A stretch of 64,000 bases of DNA from Patescibacteria group bacterium (GTDB lineage Bacteria > Patescibacteriota > Patescibacteriia > UBA9934). Position numbers and translations under genes: made by a program. The notes under the pieces were generated by a model. It saw nothing but the letters and a program-made list of their open reading frames with translations, did no database searches and was not told the DNA's origin. This document shows, piece by piece, positions 4,008-61,012 of this stretch (position 1 is its first letter; each line of letters opens with the position of its first letter). The stretch covers positions 20,386-84,385 of the forward strand of contig JBAYHI010000005.1 in assembly GCA_041666205.1 (NCBI GenBank), given 5' to 3'.

Positions 4008-4096
4008 TTTGCTTTCCACTTGCATTTTCAGATGTCCGATTTTTTCGTACACCTGACTCCCCCAAACATTTTTACCCTTTTCCCTCTTGTTCAAAG

Positions 4097-4110
4097 GGGT
4101 CGAATTCGAC
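4097..4110. promoter_or_regulatory. perfect 14-bp palindrome ggtcgaattcgacc in the MazG-operon/RAYT intergenic region
   Basis: Seen directly in sequence. Confidence 0.25.
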
Positions 4111-4139
4111 CAGTTTGAGGCGAGAGGGATTATTCAGTG

Positions 4140-4156
4140 CGTGACAATTTGTCACG
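4140..4156. promoter_or_regulatory. perfect 17-bp palindrome cgtgacaatttgtcacg (8-bp arms) 30 nt downstream of the RAYT stop; candidate operator or transposase-end hairpin
   Basis: Seen directly in sequence. Confidence 0.3.
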
Positions 4157-4186
4157 GTTTCATTTTTAGACCGGGTCGAGGAAAAA

Positions 4187-4753
4187 TTATTCCACAAACA
4201 ATTCATCTTCTTCCCATTTTCGTGGGTTCTCCATAATATAGGTGCGGATATTGCTGAGGGATTTCTCATCACGAACAATGTGTTCATAATAATTCCGTTG
4301 CCAAACCGCGCCACCGGTATTCCCTCGAATAACATTCGCGCGTTTTGTGACCGCGGATTTGAATCCGGCAACAAACGATCCAATCGATTGCGATTTGGGA
4401 CCAGATCGATGTCCTGTAGGGGCGACCGGCCGGTCGCCCCTACGAAAACAAATATCGTCCGTACGAAAAACATCATTTCCACGGTTGATAACCGTAATCA
4501 CATGGATATGATTTGGCATAATCACCAAAGAATCCAATTCGATTTCGGATCGAATTTCGAGGGTCTTCAATAATTCATCATGAACAATATTCCCAAATTG
4601 ATTTAGACGAATAATTCCATGTTCAATTGCACCAAACAAACATTCACGATCCTTTGTGCAAATCGTGAGAAAATATGCGCCATCCTCAGAATAATCGTAT
4701 CCTTGCAGACGAATGGAACGACGGTGCAATCGTGGAAATTTATTAATCGGCAT
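4187..4753 (-). CDS. IS200/IS605-like Y1 (HUH) transposase, REP-associated tyrosine transposase (RAYT)-like
   Basis: HUH motif in VIMPNHIHVITV; C-terminal AVWQRNYYEHIVRDEKSLSNIRTYIMENPRKW with catalytic-Tyr context typical of this family; 188 aa. A REP-like GTAG palindrome is embedded in-frame (see repeat 4416-4443). Confidence 0.7.
   Translation of the reverse strand: MPINKFPRLHRRSIRLQGYDYSEDGAYFLTICTKDRECLFGAIEHGIIRLNQFGNIVHDELLKTLEIRSEIELDSLVIMPNHIHVITVINRGNDVFRTDDICFRRGDRPVAPTGHRSGPKSQSIGSFVAGFKSAVTKRANVIRGNTGGAVWQRNYYEHIVRDEKSLSNIRTYIMENPRKWEEDELFVE
4416..4443. repeat. REP-like palindrome gtaggggcgaccggccggtcgcccctac (GTAG-ended) lying inside the RAYT coding sequence
   Basis: Perfect 28-bp inverted repeat; same GTAGGGGC...GCCCCTAC design as hairpins at 5649, 5699, 5983 and 53537. 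Confidence 0.6.
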
Positions 4754-7692: not shown

Positions 7693-8322
7693 TTATTGAT
7701 TTGAATACTCCGGAGACTGAATCGCTCCCATACGGTTGAACGGAAGTCCACGCACCCATGCACGACCCACAATCACCTTACTCGTAATAGGACCAAAGGA
7801 TCGAGAGTCCAAACTTTCATCGCGATTATCGCCCAGCACATAATATTCATCTTCCCCTAATACGACGCTTTCACGTCCATGGGTGTATTCGCTGATATAT
7901 TCTTCGGTGAGCGTAAAACCGTTTGGATGTTCCGCATTCTTGATGGTAATGGTGCCATCGGCAATCTCAACCGTCTCTCCAGGAAGGCCAATCACACGCT
8001 TGATATAAAACTGCGACGGACTGGTTGGCGGAGCAAAGACGACCACCTCCCCGCGATCAATGGCGCGCAAGCGATACGAGAGTTCGTCGATGATGAGATA
8101 CTCGTCGTTGTAAAAATTCGGCTCCATGGATGCGCCCAAGACCACAAATGGCTTTACCACAAAGTAACGAATTGGAATGATGATGGCCGCGGCAATCACA
8201 AGGATTTGCAAGACCTCAACCCCAAAGAGCACAATTGAGCCAAGCGTGGCTCCAAATACACGAAAGATCATGCGATCTTCCCCTTGTGGAGCATCACTTG
8301 TTTCTTTTTTAAAGAATGACAT
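7693..8322 (-). CDS. lepB: signal peptidase I
   Basis: S26 boxes GASMEPNF, YIKRVIGLPGETVEI, VLGDNRDESLDSRSFGPI. Start placed at MSFFKKE (8322) because the longer ORF would overlap the tRNA-Val gene. Confidence 0.8.
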   Translation of the reverse strand: MSFFKKETSDAPQGEDRMIFRVFGATLGSIVLFGVEVLQILVIAAAIIIPIRYFVVKPFVVLGASMEPNFYNDEYLIIDELSYRLRAIDRGEVVVFAPPTSPSQFYIKRVIGLPGETVEIADGTITIKNAEHPNGFTLTEEYISEYTHGRESVVLGEDEYYVLGDNRDESLDSRSFGPITSKVIVGRAWVRGLPFNRMGAIQSPEYSNQ

Positions 8323-8411
8323 GTGAGTTTGTTTAAAGTGCGAGCATAATACCATAAAAAAATCGCCTGTGCAATAGCAAAAAATGGCCGAAGTTAGAGA
8401 AATCCACTCCC

Positions 8412-8440
8412 TTGCCATCCGTCCATTGGTTTGATAGAGT
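8412..8440 (+). promoter_or_regulatory. sigma70-like promoter for tRNA-Val: TTGCCA-N17-TAGAGT
   Basis: -35 8412-8417, 17-nt spacer, -10 8435-8440, ~14 nt before tRNA 5' end. Confidence 0.4.
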
Positions 8441-8454
8441 AGGGATTGCAATTT

Positions 8455-8531
8455 GGACGTGTAGCTCAGCTGGTTAGAGCGCTGTCCTCACACGACAGAG
8501 GTCAGAGGTCCGAGTCCTCTCACGTCCACCA
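8455..8531 (+). tRNA. tRNA-Val (anticodon CAC), CCA encoded
   Basis: ggacgtg acceptor / D-arm gctcagctggttagagc / anticodon stem-loop ctgtc-ctCACac-gacag / T-arm ggtccgagtcc / cacgtcc-a-cca. Confidence 0.85.
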
Positions 8532-8683
8532 CCCTTCGCTCCTTCGGAGCTACGGGTGGCAGGCCATCCTTGTTCAACGAACGACGGATGACAGGCCATC
8601 CTGCCACACTCGGAATCGGCGAAGGGTGCCCTTCCGAAGCTCTGTTCATACAGAGCGAAGGAGGGCGCGAACTCGACGCAACT

Positions 8684-8929
8684 ATGTTTTTTGTGTACAT
8701 CATCCAAAGTATCAATTTTTCTGATAAACGATACACGGGTTTTACTGAATGTATCGAATCAAGGATTGATGAACATAATCGTGGCAAATCGCCACACACA
8801 AAAAAATTCAAACCATGGAAACTAATCTACTATTCAGCGTTTGCAGAAAAAAAGAAAGCATTAGACTTCGAAAAATATTTAAAGTCTGCATCAGGATCTG
8901 CATTCAGAAATAAAAGACTGCTCTCATAA
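8684..8929 (+). CDS. small GIY-YIG nuclease superfamily protein (YhbQ/UPF0213-like)
   Basis: MFFVYIIQS...KRYTGFTE fits the GIY...YIG-type motif pair, followed by R..EH and KPWKLIYYSAFAEKKKALDFEKYLKS. The supplied longer ORF (8570) includes a structured, probably non-coding leader, so start set at ATG 8684. Confidence 0.6.
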   Translation: MFFVYIIQSINFSDKRYTGFTECIESRIDEHNRGKSPHTKKFKPWKLIYYSAFAEKKKALDFEKYLKSASGSAFRNKRLLS

Positions 8930-8960
8930 TCCTCCCTGTTTTTAAAATTTATTTCCGCAT

Positions 8961-10484
8961 ATGGAAAAAATAACGATCGACCTGCATTCCAAATTTTTCC
9001 AACTTTTTTCCTTGTGCGGATTATCTCTCGCCCTTGGATTCCTTTTTGACTACCTCATCTACGATCATGCATTTGGCATTAATGTGCCAATTTTTATTTT
9101 TATTGCAATCACATTCGGGATCCTGCTCGCGCTCAGTTATCGTGTAGCGATTCCAAAACTTGCATACCTGTTTTTTGCGATCGGCCTAGGATTTGCGTTT
9201 CTCCTGTTTTTCCGAGCCAATGCACTTCTCTCATTTTGCAATTTCTGCGCCATGGGATTTTTCCTATTGCTTGGTGTTATTCAACTCACGGAAAAATTCA
9301 TTCATAAATTCCTTGCATTTGATTATTGGAAAACGCTCGCCCTCCCCCTGTTCTTTGTGCCTCCATTTTTAAAAACACTCCAAGATCTCATCACAATTCG
9401 ACATTCCGATACAAAACGCGATACAGCCATCCAAATCATTCGCGGAACAATTGTCGCCCTTGTAATCGTTGCAGTCCTTCTGGCGCTCTTTGCATCAGCG
9501 GATTTGGTGGTGCAGGACTTTTTCACACGCCTATTTTCAAACGAATTAGATGCAGAGCAAATCGCGGAATTTCTGGTGCGCACCTTCTTCGTCACCTTTA
9601 TTGCTGGAGCATTTCTTGGCCTCTATGCGTACGCCTTCCGTCATCCACGCGTGCATGCACCCACGAGTGACGCCACACCTGTGAAGTTCATTAAATCCAT
9701 TGAACTTGGGATTATTCTTATTGCCACGAACCTCATCTTCATTACGTTCCTCACCATTCAAGCCACAAACTTATTTGGCGGACACAATGCGCTCGATCGA
9801 CTAGGAATCACGTATGCAGAATATGCGCAACGCGGATTCTTTGAACTGATCGTGGCCGCACTCTTGGTGGCGCTCGTCTTGTGGATTGCCGATAAATATT
9901 CTGCGAAAAATACCGTGAACGAAAAAACGTCATTTCTCTTTTTGAGCAGCCTACTCCTCGTGCAAACAATTGTGCTCATGGCCTCGGCGTTCTATCGACT
10001 CGCCCTGTACGAAGGCGCCTACGGCTACACCACGCTCCGACTCTTCAGTCACGCGTTTATTATTTGGATTGCGCTTGCGCTCGTGTATTTCCTCGTGAAA
10101 ATTTGGTTCGCAAAAAAAGAAGAGCATTTCGCGCTTGCCACATTTGGAACCGGCGTCGTGCTTTTGCTTGCGCTCAACGCGCTCAATCCTGATGCCTTTA
10201 TGGCAACGCAGCATTTGCAACGCGCCGCTGGCACCGAAACATTTGATGCACCATTTTTATCACAACTCTCTGCCGATGCTGTTCCGGTGCTTTACGAGGC
10301 GATGCGGGCAAATACCGACGCGCGATTACCCGAGGTACTAGCCGATTGGAAAGGAGAGCGCTTTGATTATTCTGGAGAAAAAGGACCAGCGACGCTTCGC
10401 AGTCAGTACGTTGGTTGGCAGGCGTATCATTTTGCACGAACCCATGCGCTCGACGTGCTTGCGGACGTGAACGTCCAAAGATAA
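8961..10484 (+). CDS. polytopic membrane protein, DUF4173-like, function unknown
   Basis: 507 aa with ~12 hydrophobic segments; no catalytic motif recognised. Confidence 0.55.
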   Translation: MEKITIDLHSKFFQLFSLCGLSLALGFLFDYLIYDHAFGINVPIFIFIAITFGILLALSYRVAIPKLAYLFFAIGLGFAFLLFFRANALLSFCNFCAMGFFLLLGVIQLTEKFIHKFLAFDYWKTLALPLFFVPPFLKTLQDLITIRHSDTKRDTAIQIIRGTIVALVIVAVLLALFASADLVVQDFFTRLFSNELDAEQIAEFLVRTFFVTFIAGAFLGLYAYAFRHPRVHAPTSDATPVKFIKSIELGIILIATNLIFITFLTIQATNLFGGHNALDRLGITYAEYAQRGFFELIVAALLVALVLWIADKYSAKNTVNEKTSFLFLSSLLLVQTIVLMASAFYRLALYEGAYGYTTLRLFSHAFIIWIALALVYFLVKIWFAKKEEHFALATFGTGVVLLLALNALNPDAFMATQHLQRAAGTETFDAPFLSQLSADAVPVLYEAMRANTDARLPEVLADWKGERFDYSGEKGPATLRSQYVGWQAYHFARTHALDVLADVNVQR

Positions 10485-21865: not shown

Positions 21866-22135
21866 TTATAGGCATTGGTAACCCAGTCGCTTCAATTCAT
21901 TCTTATTCTGTTTCTTGAACTCCCTGTGGCCTCCGCCACTTTTCAAATAGACTTCTCGAGCTTTTGCGTCCTGTCCATTGCAATAGCACTCATAATAGAT
22001 GAGCTGTAATGGTCTCCGGTGTTTTGTAGAAATCACCCTCCCTTTTTGATGCTCGTCGATACGCCGTTTCAAATCCTCAGAAAACCCAATATATAGTTTG
22101 TGATCGGCGCAAAATAAGACGTAAACATAAAACAT
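21866..22135 (-). CDS. small GIY-YIG nuclease superfamily protein (YhbQ/UPF0213-like), second copy
   Basis: MFYVYVLFCADHKLYIGFSEDLKRRIDEHQKG... GIY/YIG-type motifs; 89 aa; paralogous in design to 8684-8929. Confidence 0.6.
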   Translation of the reverse strand: MFYVYVLFCADHKLYIGFSEDLKRRIDEHQKGRVISTKHRRPLQLIYYECYCNGQDAKAREVYLKSGGGHREFKKQNKNELKRLGYQCL

Positions 22136-22234
22136 ATTGAAATCATCCTACCGTATAGCGACGTCTGACGTCGCCAATGCATGTAGATAACCAATGGACA
22201 GTCTATTCTAATGTCCCGTCAGACGGGACTAGCC

Positions 22235-22265
22235 CTGTCTATACAAAAACCCACCGATGTTTTAT
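22235..22265 (-). terminator. intrinsic terminator after initiator tRNA (hairpin ccccatcgat-aaaac-atcggtggg + TTTTT on minus strand)
   Basis: 9-bp stem with one G.U pair followed by T5. Confidence 0.45.
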
Positions 22266-22313
22266 CGATGGGGTTTTGTGGCTCCCTGAACGGGTGTGGC
22301 CCGTTCGACGGGC

Positions 22314-22390
<77 letters not shown>

Positions 22391-22430
22391 GGCACACAAT
22401 ACGAAAAATTAGCACTTCTGTCAAGGTAAG

Positions 22431-26389: not shown

Positions 26390-26476
26390 GCCGCGGTGGC
26401 GGAACTGGTATACGCGACGGACTCAAAATCCGTTGTCTGCAAAGGCTTGAGGGTTCGAGTCCCTCCCGCGGCACCA
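26390..26476 (+). tRNA. tRNA-Leu (anticodon CAA), long variable arm, CCA encoded
   Basis: gccgcgg...anticodon loop ctCAAaa...variable arm tctgcaaaggcttgag...T-arm gagggttcgagtccctc...ccgcggc-a-cca. Confidence 0.85.
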
Positions 26477-26487
26477 TCAAAAAACAT

Positions 26488-26564
26488 GGCTGGGTAGCTC
26501 AATTGGCTAGAGCGTGGGACTCATAAGCCCAAGGTTGTGGGTTCGATCCCCACCCCAGCTACCA
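26488..26564 (+). tRNA. tRNA with CAU anticodon (elongator Met or Ile2-lysidine), CCA encoded
   Basis: ggctggg...D-arm gctcaattggctagagc...anticodon loop ctCATaa...T-arm gtgggttcgatccccac...cccagct-a-cca; G1.U72 wobble; not initiator-like. Confidence 0.75.
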
Positions 26565-29455: not shown

Positions 29456-29698
29456 TTGAGACGGAATCGCGTACACTTCACCGAATGGATCCGGGAGATT
29501 CTTTTCATCCCGGCCGTAATCCTCATCGTCCTCATTCCAGGAGTCGGACTCATGATCTTCACAGCACTCGTCGACGCGCTCGTTCAGGTGGCGCCCATCC
29601 TCTGGTGGGTCAGCGTCGCAACGCTCGCGGTGCTCATCGAGACACGCCTCATGCGCCAGAGGCGGGCCGAGCTCATCCGCCAGGTCGCGGAGAAGTAA
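29456..29698 (+). CDS. small membrane protein 1 (80 aa, 2 TM), GC-rich, TTG start
   Basis: MRRNRVHFTEWIREILFIPAVILIVLIPGVGLMIFTALVDALVQVAPILWWVSVATLAVLIETRLMRQRRAELIRQVAEK; own promoter, RBS and terminator. Confidence 0.45.
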   Translation: MRRNRVHFTEWIREILFIPAVILIVLIPGVGLMIFTALVDALVQVAPILWWVSVATLAVLIETRLMRQRRAELIRQVAEK

Positions 29699-29723
29699 CC
29701 CCCGCCACCCGCGCCCCTCCGAT

Positions 29724-53561: not shown

Positions 53562-53975
53562 CCTCCACTTTTCTTTGCTGGCCCAAAGAAAAGTGGAGAG
53601 AAAAGAAATGGCCTGCTTACGGCCCATCCCAGCCTTCGCGCTTGGCTGGCCCGGAAAAACGTATGAAGAACCAAACCACCCAGGGCAGGAACGTTTTTCC
53701 GGTCGGGCCTTGTTCGATAGCCTGTTTTTATTTGAATCGCCGGCTCGAGCATTGTCAAAGAGGAATCCGGCGTTCGGACAGGAATTGCACGGCCACCTCC
53801 GGCACATCCAAAGTTGTACGGGCATGGCGCGCCATGCCCGTACGCGGGATCCATTGCCGGAGACTGGCCGTGCCCTGGCCGACGACGGATAAGACAACAT
53901 GCCTCTTTGACAAGCGCAGACCCGGCAGCCAGTTTCTTTCCCTCCACTTTCTTTGCTGGTCCAAAGAAAGTGGAG
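53562..53975. repeat. composite repeat element copy 2 (hairpin - 87-bp core 53622-53708 - aaagaggaatccggc - ~170-bp insert incl. 28-bp perfect palindrome 53816-53843 - hairpin ctccactttctttgctggtccaaagaaagtggag)
   Basis: 87/87 identity of core with 5792-5878; terminal hairpins conserved; insert unique to this copy. Confidence 0.65.
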
Positions 53976-60160: not shown

Positions 60161-61012
60161 TCAGTTCAGGGAGTTGAGATGAGACGCCAAGTGCTTACGC
60201 CAGCCCACGAGGTCGATGGCGACCACCGACACGTCATCGTAGGGACGCTCTCGGAGGATACGGGTCCAGAACTCGCTCGCGCGTTCCTGGAATGACTTGT
60301 GTTGACCTGCGAGGAGTCGCAGTTCCGCGCCGAGTGACGGCCCGAGTGCGTACCTCACGCCATCGGACATGAGGATCAGCACCGTCGCTTCCTCTGGCCA
60401 GGCGGTCTGCCACACGGTCTCGGGATCAGCTTGCAAAGCATCCCCGTAGACGAAGTCCCCGAATGCCCGACTGAGTTGAATCGGGGGCAGCCTCATCGTC
60501 CAGGGCGGATGGAAGTAGTGCGTCTTCGGGCGATCAGGATCTGCGCGAACTTGCCAGCCCGACGACTGGAGCCTCGCACGCTCACCTGCATTGTTGGTTC
60601 CGTGCGCCGGCGTCATGGGCTGTGGTTCGCTCATGTCTGGACGCAGCAGATACGCTTCCGTATCCCCAACCGTCGCAACGCAGACAAACTCTCCCGTGAG
60701 AATCGTCCACGCCGCCGTTGTGCCCCCATAGCAGCGCGAGATCTTCAGGAACCCGCAAAGTTCCTGATCGATCCGCTGTGCAATCGCTCGCATTTTCTCA
60801 GGATCGGGGTCCTCCAGGACTTCCGGGAGAAGTCCGTGGCACAATCGCGCCGCGGTTTCGTTCGCGACAAACTCTCCCTTGTCACCGTGCCCGTCGAGGA
60901 CTTCACCGAAGATGTATTCCTCGGTTGCCTCAACGCGAGTGACGTCTTCCGAGACACAACATCCCGGACGTCCACCCTTACGCTCACCTTGAAAAAACAA
61001 TTCGCCGTTCAT
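60161..61012 (-). CDS. PP2C-family Ser/Thr protein phosphatase, GC-rich (~60%)
   Basis: PP2C motifs VLDGHGDKGEFVA, GGTTAA, GDTEAY, SRAFGD, ILMSDGV; strong RBS GAGGAGG; composition clearly above flanks. Confidence 0.75.
   Translation of the reverse strand: MNGELFFQGERKGGRPGCCVSEDVTRVEATEEYIFGEVLDGHGDKGEFVANETAARLCHGLLPEVLEDPDPEKMRAIAQRIDQELCGFLKISRCYGGTTAAWTILTGEFVCVATVGDTEAYLLRPDMSEPQPMTPAHGTNNAGERARLQSSGWQVRADPDRPKTHYFHPPWTMRLPPIQLSRAFGDFVYGDALQADPETVWQTAWPEEATVLILMSDGVRYALGPSLGAELRLLAGQHKSFQERASEFWTRILRERPYDDVSVVAIDLVGWRKHLASHLNSLN

Follow-up and report, generated by a model that had tools for sequence, protein, structure and literature searches.

Hairpin-rich spacers and small GIY-YIG nuclease genes form a compact module at the 3' ends of bacterial tRNA and tmRNA genes

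A 64-kb stretch of a Patescibacteria (candidate phyla radiation, CPR) genome, referred to here as the window, holds two loci at which a transfer RNA (tRNA) gene is followed on the same strand by a hairpin-rich spacer and a gene for a small GIY-YIG nuclease. The two loci lie on opposite strands. An initial annotation of this DNA had pointed out the arrangement, which is confirmed by the coordinates, the predicted folds and matches to the Pfam profile PF01541. The four hairpins quoted at that stage, gctccttcggagc (8538-8550) and ggatgacaggccatcc (8586-8601) in copy 1 and gcgacgtctgacgtcgc (22158-22174) and gtcccgtcagacgggac (22213-22229) in copy 2, are all present; the overlap of the first copy-1 hairpin with the CCA of the tRNA had been overlooked. 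Both nuclease genes belong to a widespread compact module that is placed exactly at the 3' ends of genes for tRNA or transfer-messenger RNA (tmRNA). A tblastn search shows no other GIY-YIG gene in the window; the products of the two are 41% identical to each other, and both have 100% matches titled 'MAG: GIY-YIG nuclease family protein [Patescibacteria group bacterium]'. There are three tRNA loci in the 64 kb. A same-strand tRNA end no more than 500 nt upstream is expected at about 1.6% of positions, so that two out of two is already improbable by chance.

Copy 1 comprises the following features, all on the + strand:

8412-8440, +, candidate for a sigma-70-like promoter ahead of tRNA-Val, TTGCCA-17-TAGAGT with TG (consensus match alone)
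8455-8531, +, tRNA-Val(CAC) gene with the CCA encoded at 8529-8531 (ARAGORN; Rfam, 66.8 bits)
8532-8683, +, GC-rich spacer of 152 nt
8526-8669, +, conserved family-1 motif (covariance model R1, 73.6 bits, E = 2.2e-12)
8529-8559, +, H_left, an inverted hairpin unit reading CCA-CC-CTTCGC-[TCCTTCGGA]-GCTACG-GG-TGG
8555-8569, +, B hairpin GGTGGC-AG-GCCATCC (block parse, helix 4)
8570-8618, +, variable region V, holding the hairpin ggatgacaggccatcc and a direct repeat of CAGGCCATCCT
8619-8628, +, block C, GCGAAG-GG-TG, part of the long-range stem P1
8628-8666, +, H_right (D), a forward unit reading GCCCTTC-CGAAGC-[TCTGT TCAT ACAGA]-GCGAAG-GAGGGC
8684-8929, +, gene for an 81-aa GIY-YIG nuclease of the UPF0213/YhbQ-Slx1 clade (PF01541, E = 1.7e-16)

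The outer stem of H_left is built with the CCA of tRNA-Val itself. Block C is exactly complementary to the CCA-proximal strand CA-CC-CTTCGC (8530-8539), and the 3' strand of the B hairpin repeats the CCA-nn junction sequence and opens a degenerate middle hairpin unit. In H_right, the internal loop with G.A / A.G mismatches is conserved, and 17 nt separate this unit from the ATG. The segment 8529-8690, which includes the spacer, has a predicted fold of -75.9 kcal/mol (z = -6.06), a stability equalled by none of 200 shuffles. Model R1 finds a single + strand match in the window, at 8526-8669, accompanied by an overlapping weak antisense echo of 28 bits. In a scan of 8250-9050, the candidate at 8412-8440 was the sole promoter-like site upstream of the nuclease open reading frame (ORF) on that strand, and no promoter-like or terminator-like site was found between tRNA-Val and the ORF.

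Copy 2 reads in the opposite direction:

22396-22424, -, promoter-like site TTGACA-17-TATTGT upstream of the initiator tRNA-Met
22314-22390, -, initiator-type tRNA-Met(CAT) gene with encoded CCA (ARAGORN, Rfam)
22136-22313, -, spacer of 178 nt (fold z = -5.14)
22299-22313, -, family-2 hairpin H1 (GCCCGTCGAACGGGC), directly abutting the CCA
22250-22272, -, intrinsic-terminator-like hairpin and T-run between tRNA-Met and the nuclease gene
22213-22229, -, family-2 hairpin H2 (GTCCCGTCTGACGGGAC on the - strand; the gtcccgtcagacgggac of the initial annotation)
22158-22174, -, family-2 hairpin H3 (GCGACGTCAGACGTCGC on the - strand; quoted as gcgacgtctgacgtcgc), 22 nt upstream of the ATG
21866-22135, -, gene for an 89-aa GIY-YIG nuclease, family 2 (PF01541, E = 1.8e-13)

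A family-2 relative with 64% identity (L082/L083) shares the initiator tRNA, the terminator and two hairpins with this copy. The third tRNA locus or cluster of the window (26390-26564) is followed by an ordinary terminator and lacks the motif, and a loose hairpin-unit pattern, tried as a search for further units in the window, matched at chance level only.

Adjacency to tRNA and tmRNA genes is conserved in relatives of both proteins. Alignment A1 of copy-1 relatives led to 80 loci (family 1) in bacterial contigs representing one genome per species, from Patescibacteria, Alphaproteobacteria, Verrucomicrobia, Nitrospirales, Lentisphaerae, Deltaproteobacteria, Marinimicrobia and others. In 57 of them, ARAGORN places a same-strand tRNA or tmRNA whose end is no more than 500 nt upstream of the ORF (median gap 126 nt). 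Six further tmRNAs, not called by ARAGORN, and one truncated tRNA come from Rfam, which brings the count to at least 64 of 80, all on the same strand and with gaps of 90-300 nt. Several of the leftover loci are too short, or still show a ...CCA end ahead of the motif. The partners comprise 21 different tRNA or tmRNA (t(m)RNA) species. For family 2, closer relatives of copy 2 were used to fetch 68 metagenome loci with sufficient upstream sequence, and 33 of these have the same arrangement (median gap 110 nt; 17 anticodons plus tmRNA). Among the carriers of the module, Methyloligella, Parvibaculum, Lacibacterium and Breoghania are in culture. Chance would give about 1-2% in either set, and the absence of conserved adjacency in relatives, which the initial annotation had named as the result that would speak against a module, is thus clearly not what is found; the synteny check that it proposed reveals an adjacency that is conserved across phyla and nucleotide-precise.

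Several peculiarities of individual loci came to light in this survey. Loci of the Gracilibacteria/Peribacteria type (L018, L024, L025, L028, L029, L031, L036 and L078) carry an in-frame TGA at a conserved Gly position of the GIY-YIG ORF, which is consistent with genetic code 25, and their tmRNAs are missed by the bacterial mode of ARAGORN and detected by Rfam. In L061, the motif at about 2840-2890 is preceded by an apparent 3' half of an initiator-type tRNA (ggttcaaatcctacccccgcaacca) without an ARAGORN call; the piece may be a truncated tRNA or one overlooked by the finder. A group II intron domain (RF02001, 132 bits) lies at 4059-4223 (-) of L017, about 1 kb downstream of a tmRNA-linked GIY-YIG module.

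The family-1 spacer is built from an imperfect hairpin unit, GCC[A/C]-nn-CGWAGC-(stem-loop)-GCGAAG-n'n'-[T/G]GGC, of which each motif has three copies: one inverted at the tRNA end, where the outer stem takes in the CCA of the tRNA, one forward and usually degenerate, and one forward just before the ATG. A block parse found this structure in 33 loci and in the window. From the tRNA side, the blocks run ...CCA, nn, CTTCGC, variable hairpin, GCTACG, n'n', TGGC-(2-4 nt)-GCCA-nn and a variable part; toward the ORF they continue with GCGAAG, n'n'T, G[CT]CC-nn-CGTAGC-loop-GCGAAG-nn-GG[GA]C, 4-25 nt and ATG. Some CPR loci have a permuted block order with the covariation kept. The junction is exact, as CTTCG begins precisely 2 nt after the encoded CCA in 47 of 58 family-1 loci, and the last hairpin, which ends 4-25 nt before the ATG, can include a Shine-Dalgarno-like GGAGG.

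Base pairing within this motif is supported by covariation. Alignment A2, made with MAFFT from 32 motif instances of several phyla, has 26 invariant columns, and RNAalifold applied to it returns the long-range stem CA-nn-CUUC / GAAG-n'n'-UG. Over the full structure, 89.8% of cells are paired and the covariation score is 0.338, compared with 0.124 ± 0.010 in shuffled alignments (reached by 0 of 500) and at most 0.10 in slid controls. Helices 1-2, in which block C pairs with the CCA-proximal strand, are 97.5-100% paired and covary, and the A:B pairing reaches 95.8%, again with a covariation score that none of 500 shuffles attains. The dinucleotide that follows the CCA has at least nine values, which are matched by two internal complements (A:C and A:B covary): its two bases are 100% and 87.5% paired with block C, and 97% and 81% with the segment before TGGC. 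In the internal loop of the forward unit A.G is invariant (32/32) and G.A nearly so (28/32), and the inverted unit has the exact complements, C.U (32/32) and U.C (30/32). The inverted unit and the middle one are inverted repeats of each other with 2-4 nt between them, which allows two ways of pairing, either three hairpins in series or a long stem with a central hairpin, an arrangement that is branch-migratable and resembles a four-way junction.

A covariance model, R1, was built from A2 and used to search 0.5 Mb. It matches about 74 of the 80 family-1 loci with E-values down to 3.5e-16, and no match falls outside t(m)RNA 3' ends or the region upstream of the ORF. Rfam has no counterpart for the spacers: the window at the gathering threshold, both spacers at E <=10 and nine representative loci at E <=0.1 yielded only tRNA and tmRNA matches, and the same scans showed nothing credible for group I introns, hepatitis delta virus (HDV)-like, hatchet or other ribozymes, or tRNA-like elements. 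Some other forms of organization were considered and rejected. Primer-binding-site-like pairing with the tRNA body does not fit A2, in which complementarity does not extend past the CCA and the discriminator faces a mismatched base. A long-range perfect GCTACG/CGTAGC pairing showed no covariation when A2 was read by eye, and dispersed repeats of the REP (repetitive extragenic palindromic) type are dismissed because the hairpin units are confined between t(m)RNA and ORF.

Family 2 has a simpler unit, N4-6-GTC-N1-3-GAC-N'4-6 (for example ACCGAGTCAAACTCGGT). Its first hairpin overlaps or abuts the tRNA terminus, and 25 of 34 loci have a hairpin start at positions -5 to +4 relative to the end of the tRNA; H1, H2 and H3 of window copy 2 fit this pattern. 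The hairpin type is thus specific to each protein subfamily, and the earlier statement that the spacers are alike in design and not in sequence is true of the two window copies and does not extend to the members of one protein family, which share a conserved, covarying motif. A third, more distant GIY-YIG subgroup (L110-L147; e.g. L114 640-1776, L111, L129, L131, L140-L143) is not linked to tRNA genes and has a hairpin of its own, CCGCGTAAAAGGCTTCGCCTCACGCGG. On many unrelated contigs this hairpin directly follows tyrosine-recombinase ORFs (integron-integrase/XerD-like) that are truncated at the same ...LRLRV position; in L114, the C-terminal half of the recombinase was not found downstream.

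The proteins themselves are clearly GIY-YIG domains, with PF01541 scores of 60.7 and 51.0 bits (copies 1 and 2) against a cut-off of 22.6. Invariant in 32 sequences are Y5, Y17, G19, R27, H31 and E63, that is the Tyr, Tyr-x-Gly, Arg, His and Glu positions, and the catalytic positions of the Y5/Y17/R27/E63 type are presumably equivalent to Y6/Y17/R27/E75 of I-TevI. In a profile search of solved structures, the UPF0213 proteins BH0048 (1zg2, 4.7e-14) and EF2693 rank first (1ywl, 5.3e-9), followed by SLX1 (1e-8), and I-TevI is marginal (0.77). The AlphaFold (AF2) model, with a predicted local distance difference test (pLDDT) score of 95.6, displays the alpha/beta GIY-YIG fold, and its best Foldseek matches are the nuclease domain of plant HIGLE, Slx1 (as Slx1-Slx4, including complexes with branched DNA) and BH0048. 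By profile and predicted structure, the 81- and 89-aa proteins are assigned to the UPF0213/YhbQ-Slx1 (URI) clade and not to the Tev/Seg, UvrC or restriction enzymes, in agreement with the YhbQ-like label originally given to them. They consist of the bare catalytic domain and lack a DNA-binding domain, in other words the two-domain organization of Seg and Tev enzymes. Nearly all of the 150 best representatives measure 78-170 aa, and the profile collects 26,706 clusters at 50% identity, 6,654 of them at E <=1e-10. Multiple small COG2827 genes were reported from Caulobacter in 2007 as having no known role (PMC1839093). PADLOC gave nothing for copy 1 and only 16-bit partial matches for copy 2, PHROG nothing of weight, and an exact-protein look-up of the window proteins P0001 and P0240 returned no record.

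The identity of the partner gene changes rapidly. Protein pairs at >=90% identity share their partner t(m)RNA in 60% of cases, a fraction that falls to 37.5% at 80-90% and to 15% at 70-80% identity, against a baseline of about 10.5%. The closest relatives of window copy 1 (70-76% identity) are found next to tRNA-Ala, -Glu, -Ile, -Val(TAC) and tmRNA, none next to Val(CAC). Such a lack of conservation argues against a coupling to one specific tRNA. The module also occurs in incomplete and multiplied forms. Solo motifs follow tRNA-Gly (L037), tRNA-Ile (L001) and tmRNA (L041), and tandem copies are present in L019, with 5-6 motifs, and in L034, with two complete units. The left part of the spacer recurs as a direct repeat in 16 loci, beginning 0-23 nt after the stop codon; seven of the repeats show 100% identity over lengths of 27-136 nt. 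Their left boundary lies within 2 nt of CTTCG in about half of the junctions, as read by eye, and deeper in the spacer elsewhere (L034, L049, L075, L058). An att-type duplication, as left by integrases, is ruled out, because the tRNA 3' 20-mer, searched with up to three mismatches within about 2.5 kb of the ORF start in 58 loci, has no downstream copy.

One close syntenic relative of window copy 1 was found (L161), with genes in the following order: histidyl-tRNA synthetase, a signal peptidase, tRNA-Val(CAC), a DUF4173 protein and a LytR-family protein. Its tRNA-Val is identical to that of the window and is followed by a complete motif (71.3 bits), and the ORF is wholly absent. Directly after the CCA, the two loci differ in the first base (CC versus TC), and the change is compensated in both internal complements (GG versus GA, twice). 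Upstream of this tRNA-Val, at 3120-3400 of L161, a direct repeat of about 130 nt occurs twice (...gatgcagaacgaggaa...gtacgttgaac... / ...gatgcagagcgaggaa...gtacggcgacg...); it is absent from the window.

The interpretation that we prefer, at about an even chance of being right, is that of a selfish module of approximately 0.4 kb that targets t(m)RNA 3' ends and whose hairpins serve as the DNA substrate of its own structure-specific nuclease. It draws on features that the data show: the architecture, the conservation and covariation, the exact junction, the partner turnover, the ORF-less, solo and tandem copies and the protein fold. Of the two proposals made in the initial annotation, functional coupling or co-regulation on the one hand and a tRNA-linked mobile cassette on the other, the cassette fits best and coupling to a single tRNA is disfavored by partner turnover. 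A role of the nuclease in tRNA 3' processing or repair, also suggested there, finds no support, as the fold is that of DNA structure-specific nucleases. Co-regulation remains plausible for copy 1 in the form of co-transcription, since the spacer contains neither a promoter-like nor a terminator-like site, and transcription of the ORF, which lacks its own promoter, probably starts at the tRNA promoter and reads through. The terminator of copy 2 means that its ORF needs read-through or a separate start.

We infer that DNA is the functional form, that the nuclease recognizes the hairpins and that the module is mobile. The cognate substrate would be the family-1 core CGWAGC-stem-GCGAAG, once inverted at the tRNA end and twice forward. 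Pairing of the internal n'n'TGG segments with the CCA and the two following bases would set the end of the element precisely at the tRNA terminus, and cleavage at the hairpin structures, followed by host repair or replication, could copy the module or re-target it to other t(m)RNA 3' ends, which would offer a universally conserved and harmless landing site. With respect to DNA as the active form, the hairpin core is found 41 times on the - strand and 35 times on the + strand, and the mismatches of the left unit complement those of the right, so that only DNA would show one identical structure on opposite strands. The stems contain 25 G.U pairs compared with 24 A.C, hence no G.U excess. The GIY-YIG domain of I-TevI cleaves at the motif CNNNG (PMC12663268, PMC4065259), which the conserved word CGWAG/CTWCG fits, by way of resemblance.

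A bolder version, which we regard as possible though doubtful, is that a bare Slx1-like nuclease of some 80 aa is targeted by nucleic-acid structure and base pairing and not by a protein DNA-binding domain, and that it represents a new class of minimal mobile element. Here the n'n'TGG/CCA-nn pairing, acting like the guides of IS200/IS605 or like bridge and guide RNAs, would give rise to a hairpin or four-way junction that is open to branch migration and is cut by the nuclease, leading to nucleotide-precise insertion at t(m)RNA 3' ends across many bacterial phyla. There is a substantial chance that target choice by hairpin structure and base pairing with a domain-minimal nuclease is a categorically new mechanism; by analogy, the broader and known kind would be that of selfish GIY-YIG nuclease genes that exploit tRNA genes.

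A number of observations weigh against the selfish-module interpretation. A hydrolytic nuclease alone cannot integrate DNA, and the unit encodes neither a recombinase nor a polymerase. The exact proteins P0030 and P0041 keep the same neighbors in 19-24 contigs each, which indicates that the loci are stable in populations, and no recent jump, transposition or homing event was seen among these sampled contigs; nor was a clean empty site, an orthologous tRNA without the motif, found among the loci. The direct repeats vary at their right ends and do not agree with any simple cut-and-paste model. Phage and plasmid collections contain no relatives (tblastn). Strong purifying selection on the protein, with about 75% identity across CPR classes, fits a useful host function as well, and the intact motif without ORF in L161 could equally mean that an RNA function is maintained at the level of the host. 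Roles of the motif as DNA and as RNA are not mutually exclusive.

The competing idea with the greatest merit, which we nevertheless think unlikely, is that the spacer acts as RNA, as the structured pre-tRNA trailer and 5' untranslated region of a tRNA-mRNA co-transcript that would direct processing, stabilize the 5' end of the mRNA or gate its translation, the nuclease being a host DNA-repair enzyme placed on a strong tRNA promoter. Such a role would agree with the fixed orientation relative to the tRNA, the uninterrupted path from tRNA to ORF in copy 1, the very stable fold on the transcribed strand in both copies and the position of the last hairpin, which abuts the ribosome-binding region 4-25 nt from the ATG and may hold the GGAGG. 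It would also account for the motif that persists without an ORF, with compensatory changes, in L161, and structured RNAs for tRNA 3'-end processing do exist, theta ribozymes being an example (PMC10879173). It is less easily reconciled with a hairpin core that occurs in both orientations, since in RNA the left hairpin would be the pyrimidine-mismatch version, or with the lack of a G.U excess and of an Rfam match. Furthermore, the sequence of the motif tracks the protein subfamily across phyla and not the host, the partner tRNA is not conserved, and a terminator separates tRNA and ORF in copy 2. A more specific proposal, and a rather improbable one, is a new RNA that cleaves itself or directs a host RNase, thereby freeing both a tRNA with a correct 3' end and the downstream mRNA and rendering the inserted gene harmless to the tRNA. 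The start of the motif exactly at the CCA, the inclusion of its CA in stem P1, several nucleotides that are invariant across phyla and the precedent of HDV-like theta ribozymes beside tRNAs (PMC10879173) speak in its favor. However, no known ribozyme family matches even at E <=10, a pseudo-palindromic arrangement of hairpin units repeated in both orientations is unlike known ribozyme cores, and family 2 achieves the same arrangement with quite different, simple palindromic hairpins.

Repeated structured units right upstream of a small nuclease gene, in arrays of 5-6 in L019, are reminiscent of toxin-antitoxin or defense modules of the type III/ToxIN style, in which hairpin RNAs would neutralize the nuclease or be processed by it, and the terminator between repeats and gene in copy 2 is ToxIN-like. 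We consider this hardly probable: the fold is that of an Slx1-type DNA nuclease and not of an endoribonuclease, the units lie in both orientations, PADLOC and PHROG offer no match of weight, and the strict anchoring at t(m)RNA 3' ends would be left unexplained. Chance juxtaposition or an annotation artefact, for which nothing but the small size of the ORFs could be adduced, is next to negligible in view of an adjacency in at least 64/80 and in 33/68 independent loci where about 1-2% is expected, of covariance-model E-values down to 3.5e-16 and of two ORFs well above the Pfam cut-off.

Compared with known systems, the closest functional precedent may be SegB of phage T4, a free-standing GIY-YIG homing endonuclease encoded in the T4 tRNA gene cluster, whose 27-bp recognition site includes the conserved 11-bp T-psi-C sequence of tRNAs (PMC2330249). 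Its site makes tRNA genes a proven target for this nuclease class. Common to both are a GIY-YIG gene among or next to tRNA genes and, if the modules are selfish, the logic of inheritance. Unlike SegB and the Tev enzymes, the present proteins are bare catalytic domains of 80-90 aa without a linker, belong to the UPF0213/Slx1 clade and match I-TevI weakly (E about 1); unlike phage Seg genes, the modules are chromosomal in many bacterial phyla, without phage matches, and they always carry conserved imperfect hairpins anchored at the CCA, an array that Seg genes lack. The best sequence and fold matches, UPF0213/YhbQ and Slx1 (PDB 1zg2, 1ywl, 7cq3, 6sei, 7wme), share the minimal URI/GIY-YIG core. 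The substrates of Slx1 and HIGLE are branched or hairpin DNA, which would match the hairpin or cruciform substrate proposed here; Slx1 differs in working with Slx4 and in having a RING/PHD domain.

In design, the nearest analogy appears to be IS200/IS605. These elements and the REP/RAYT systems are likewise very small and have imperfect subterminal hairpins that are recognized as structures, and IS200/IS605 inserts in an oriented manner just 3' of a short specific sequence without duplicating it. Its guide-flank pairing would find a parallel in the covarying n'n'TGG/CCA-nn pairing. In contrast to IS200/IS605, the only ORF of the unit encodes a GIY-YIG hydrolase and not an HUH/Y1 transposase with a covalent intermediate, and the hairpins occur on both strands, all upstream of the ORF instead of flanking it; in contrast to REPs, the units are not dispersed through the genome. 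With integrase-mediated islands and prophages the modules share the t(m)RNA 3' end as landing site and an intact tRNA gene, whereas a recombinase ORF is missing from the stretch that separates the tRNA from the following host gene, the tRNA 3' segment is not duplicated downstream, and the size is about 0.4 kb and not kilobases. In open-access papers and bioRxiv preprints, to which the search was confined, there was no report connecting UPF0213 proteins with tRNA genes or with a cognate hairpin motif and no description of a tRNA-hairpin-GIY-YIG module, which thus is apparently undescribed so far.

Small stand-alone GIY-YIG genes of the UPF0213/YhbQ type are among the large uncharacterized nuclease families of bacteria. 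At least two big subfamilies now gain a genomic address, the t(m)RNA 3' end, together with a candidate substrate in the form of covarying hairpins not in Rfam and a testable role as a miniature selfish element. If the hairpins are indeed the substrate, the module would be the smallest known combination of a nuclease and its site in a mobile unit and a GIY-YIG example of target choice by nucleic-acid structure and pairing, which would be relevant to genome-editing scaffolds that exploit the I-TevI domain. The module accounts for the structured, GC-rich DNA that recurs behind tRNA genes in genomes of CPR and Alphaproteobacteria, and it may also account for breaks in assemblies at these sites. 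Many metagenome contigs with identical GIY-YIG proteins (L165-L171, L174-L180) stop within or close to the motif or the tRNA, at 60-400 nt upstream of the ORF, which suggests that assemblies break at a repeated sequence.

Some minor observations concern neighboring sequences. In one CPR lineage (L172-L179), a 78-aa ORF without a Pfam match is conserved 69 nt downstream of the GIY-YIG gene (about 1812-2048 in L172). The most GC-rich stretch of the window, 29541-29720, reaches 73% in 120-nt segments compared with 47.7% overall and takes in the last part of a small ORF together with a C-rich, terminator-like tail; additional GC-rich islands are located near 53760-53830 and 60230-60540.

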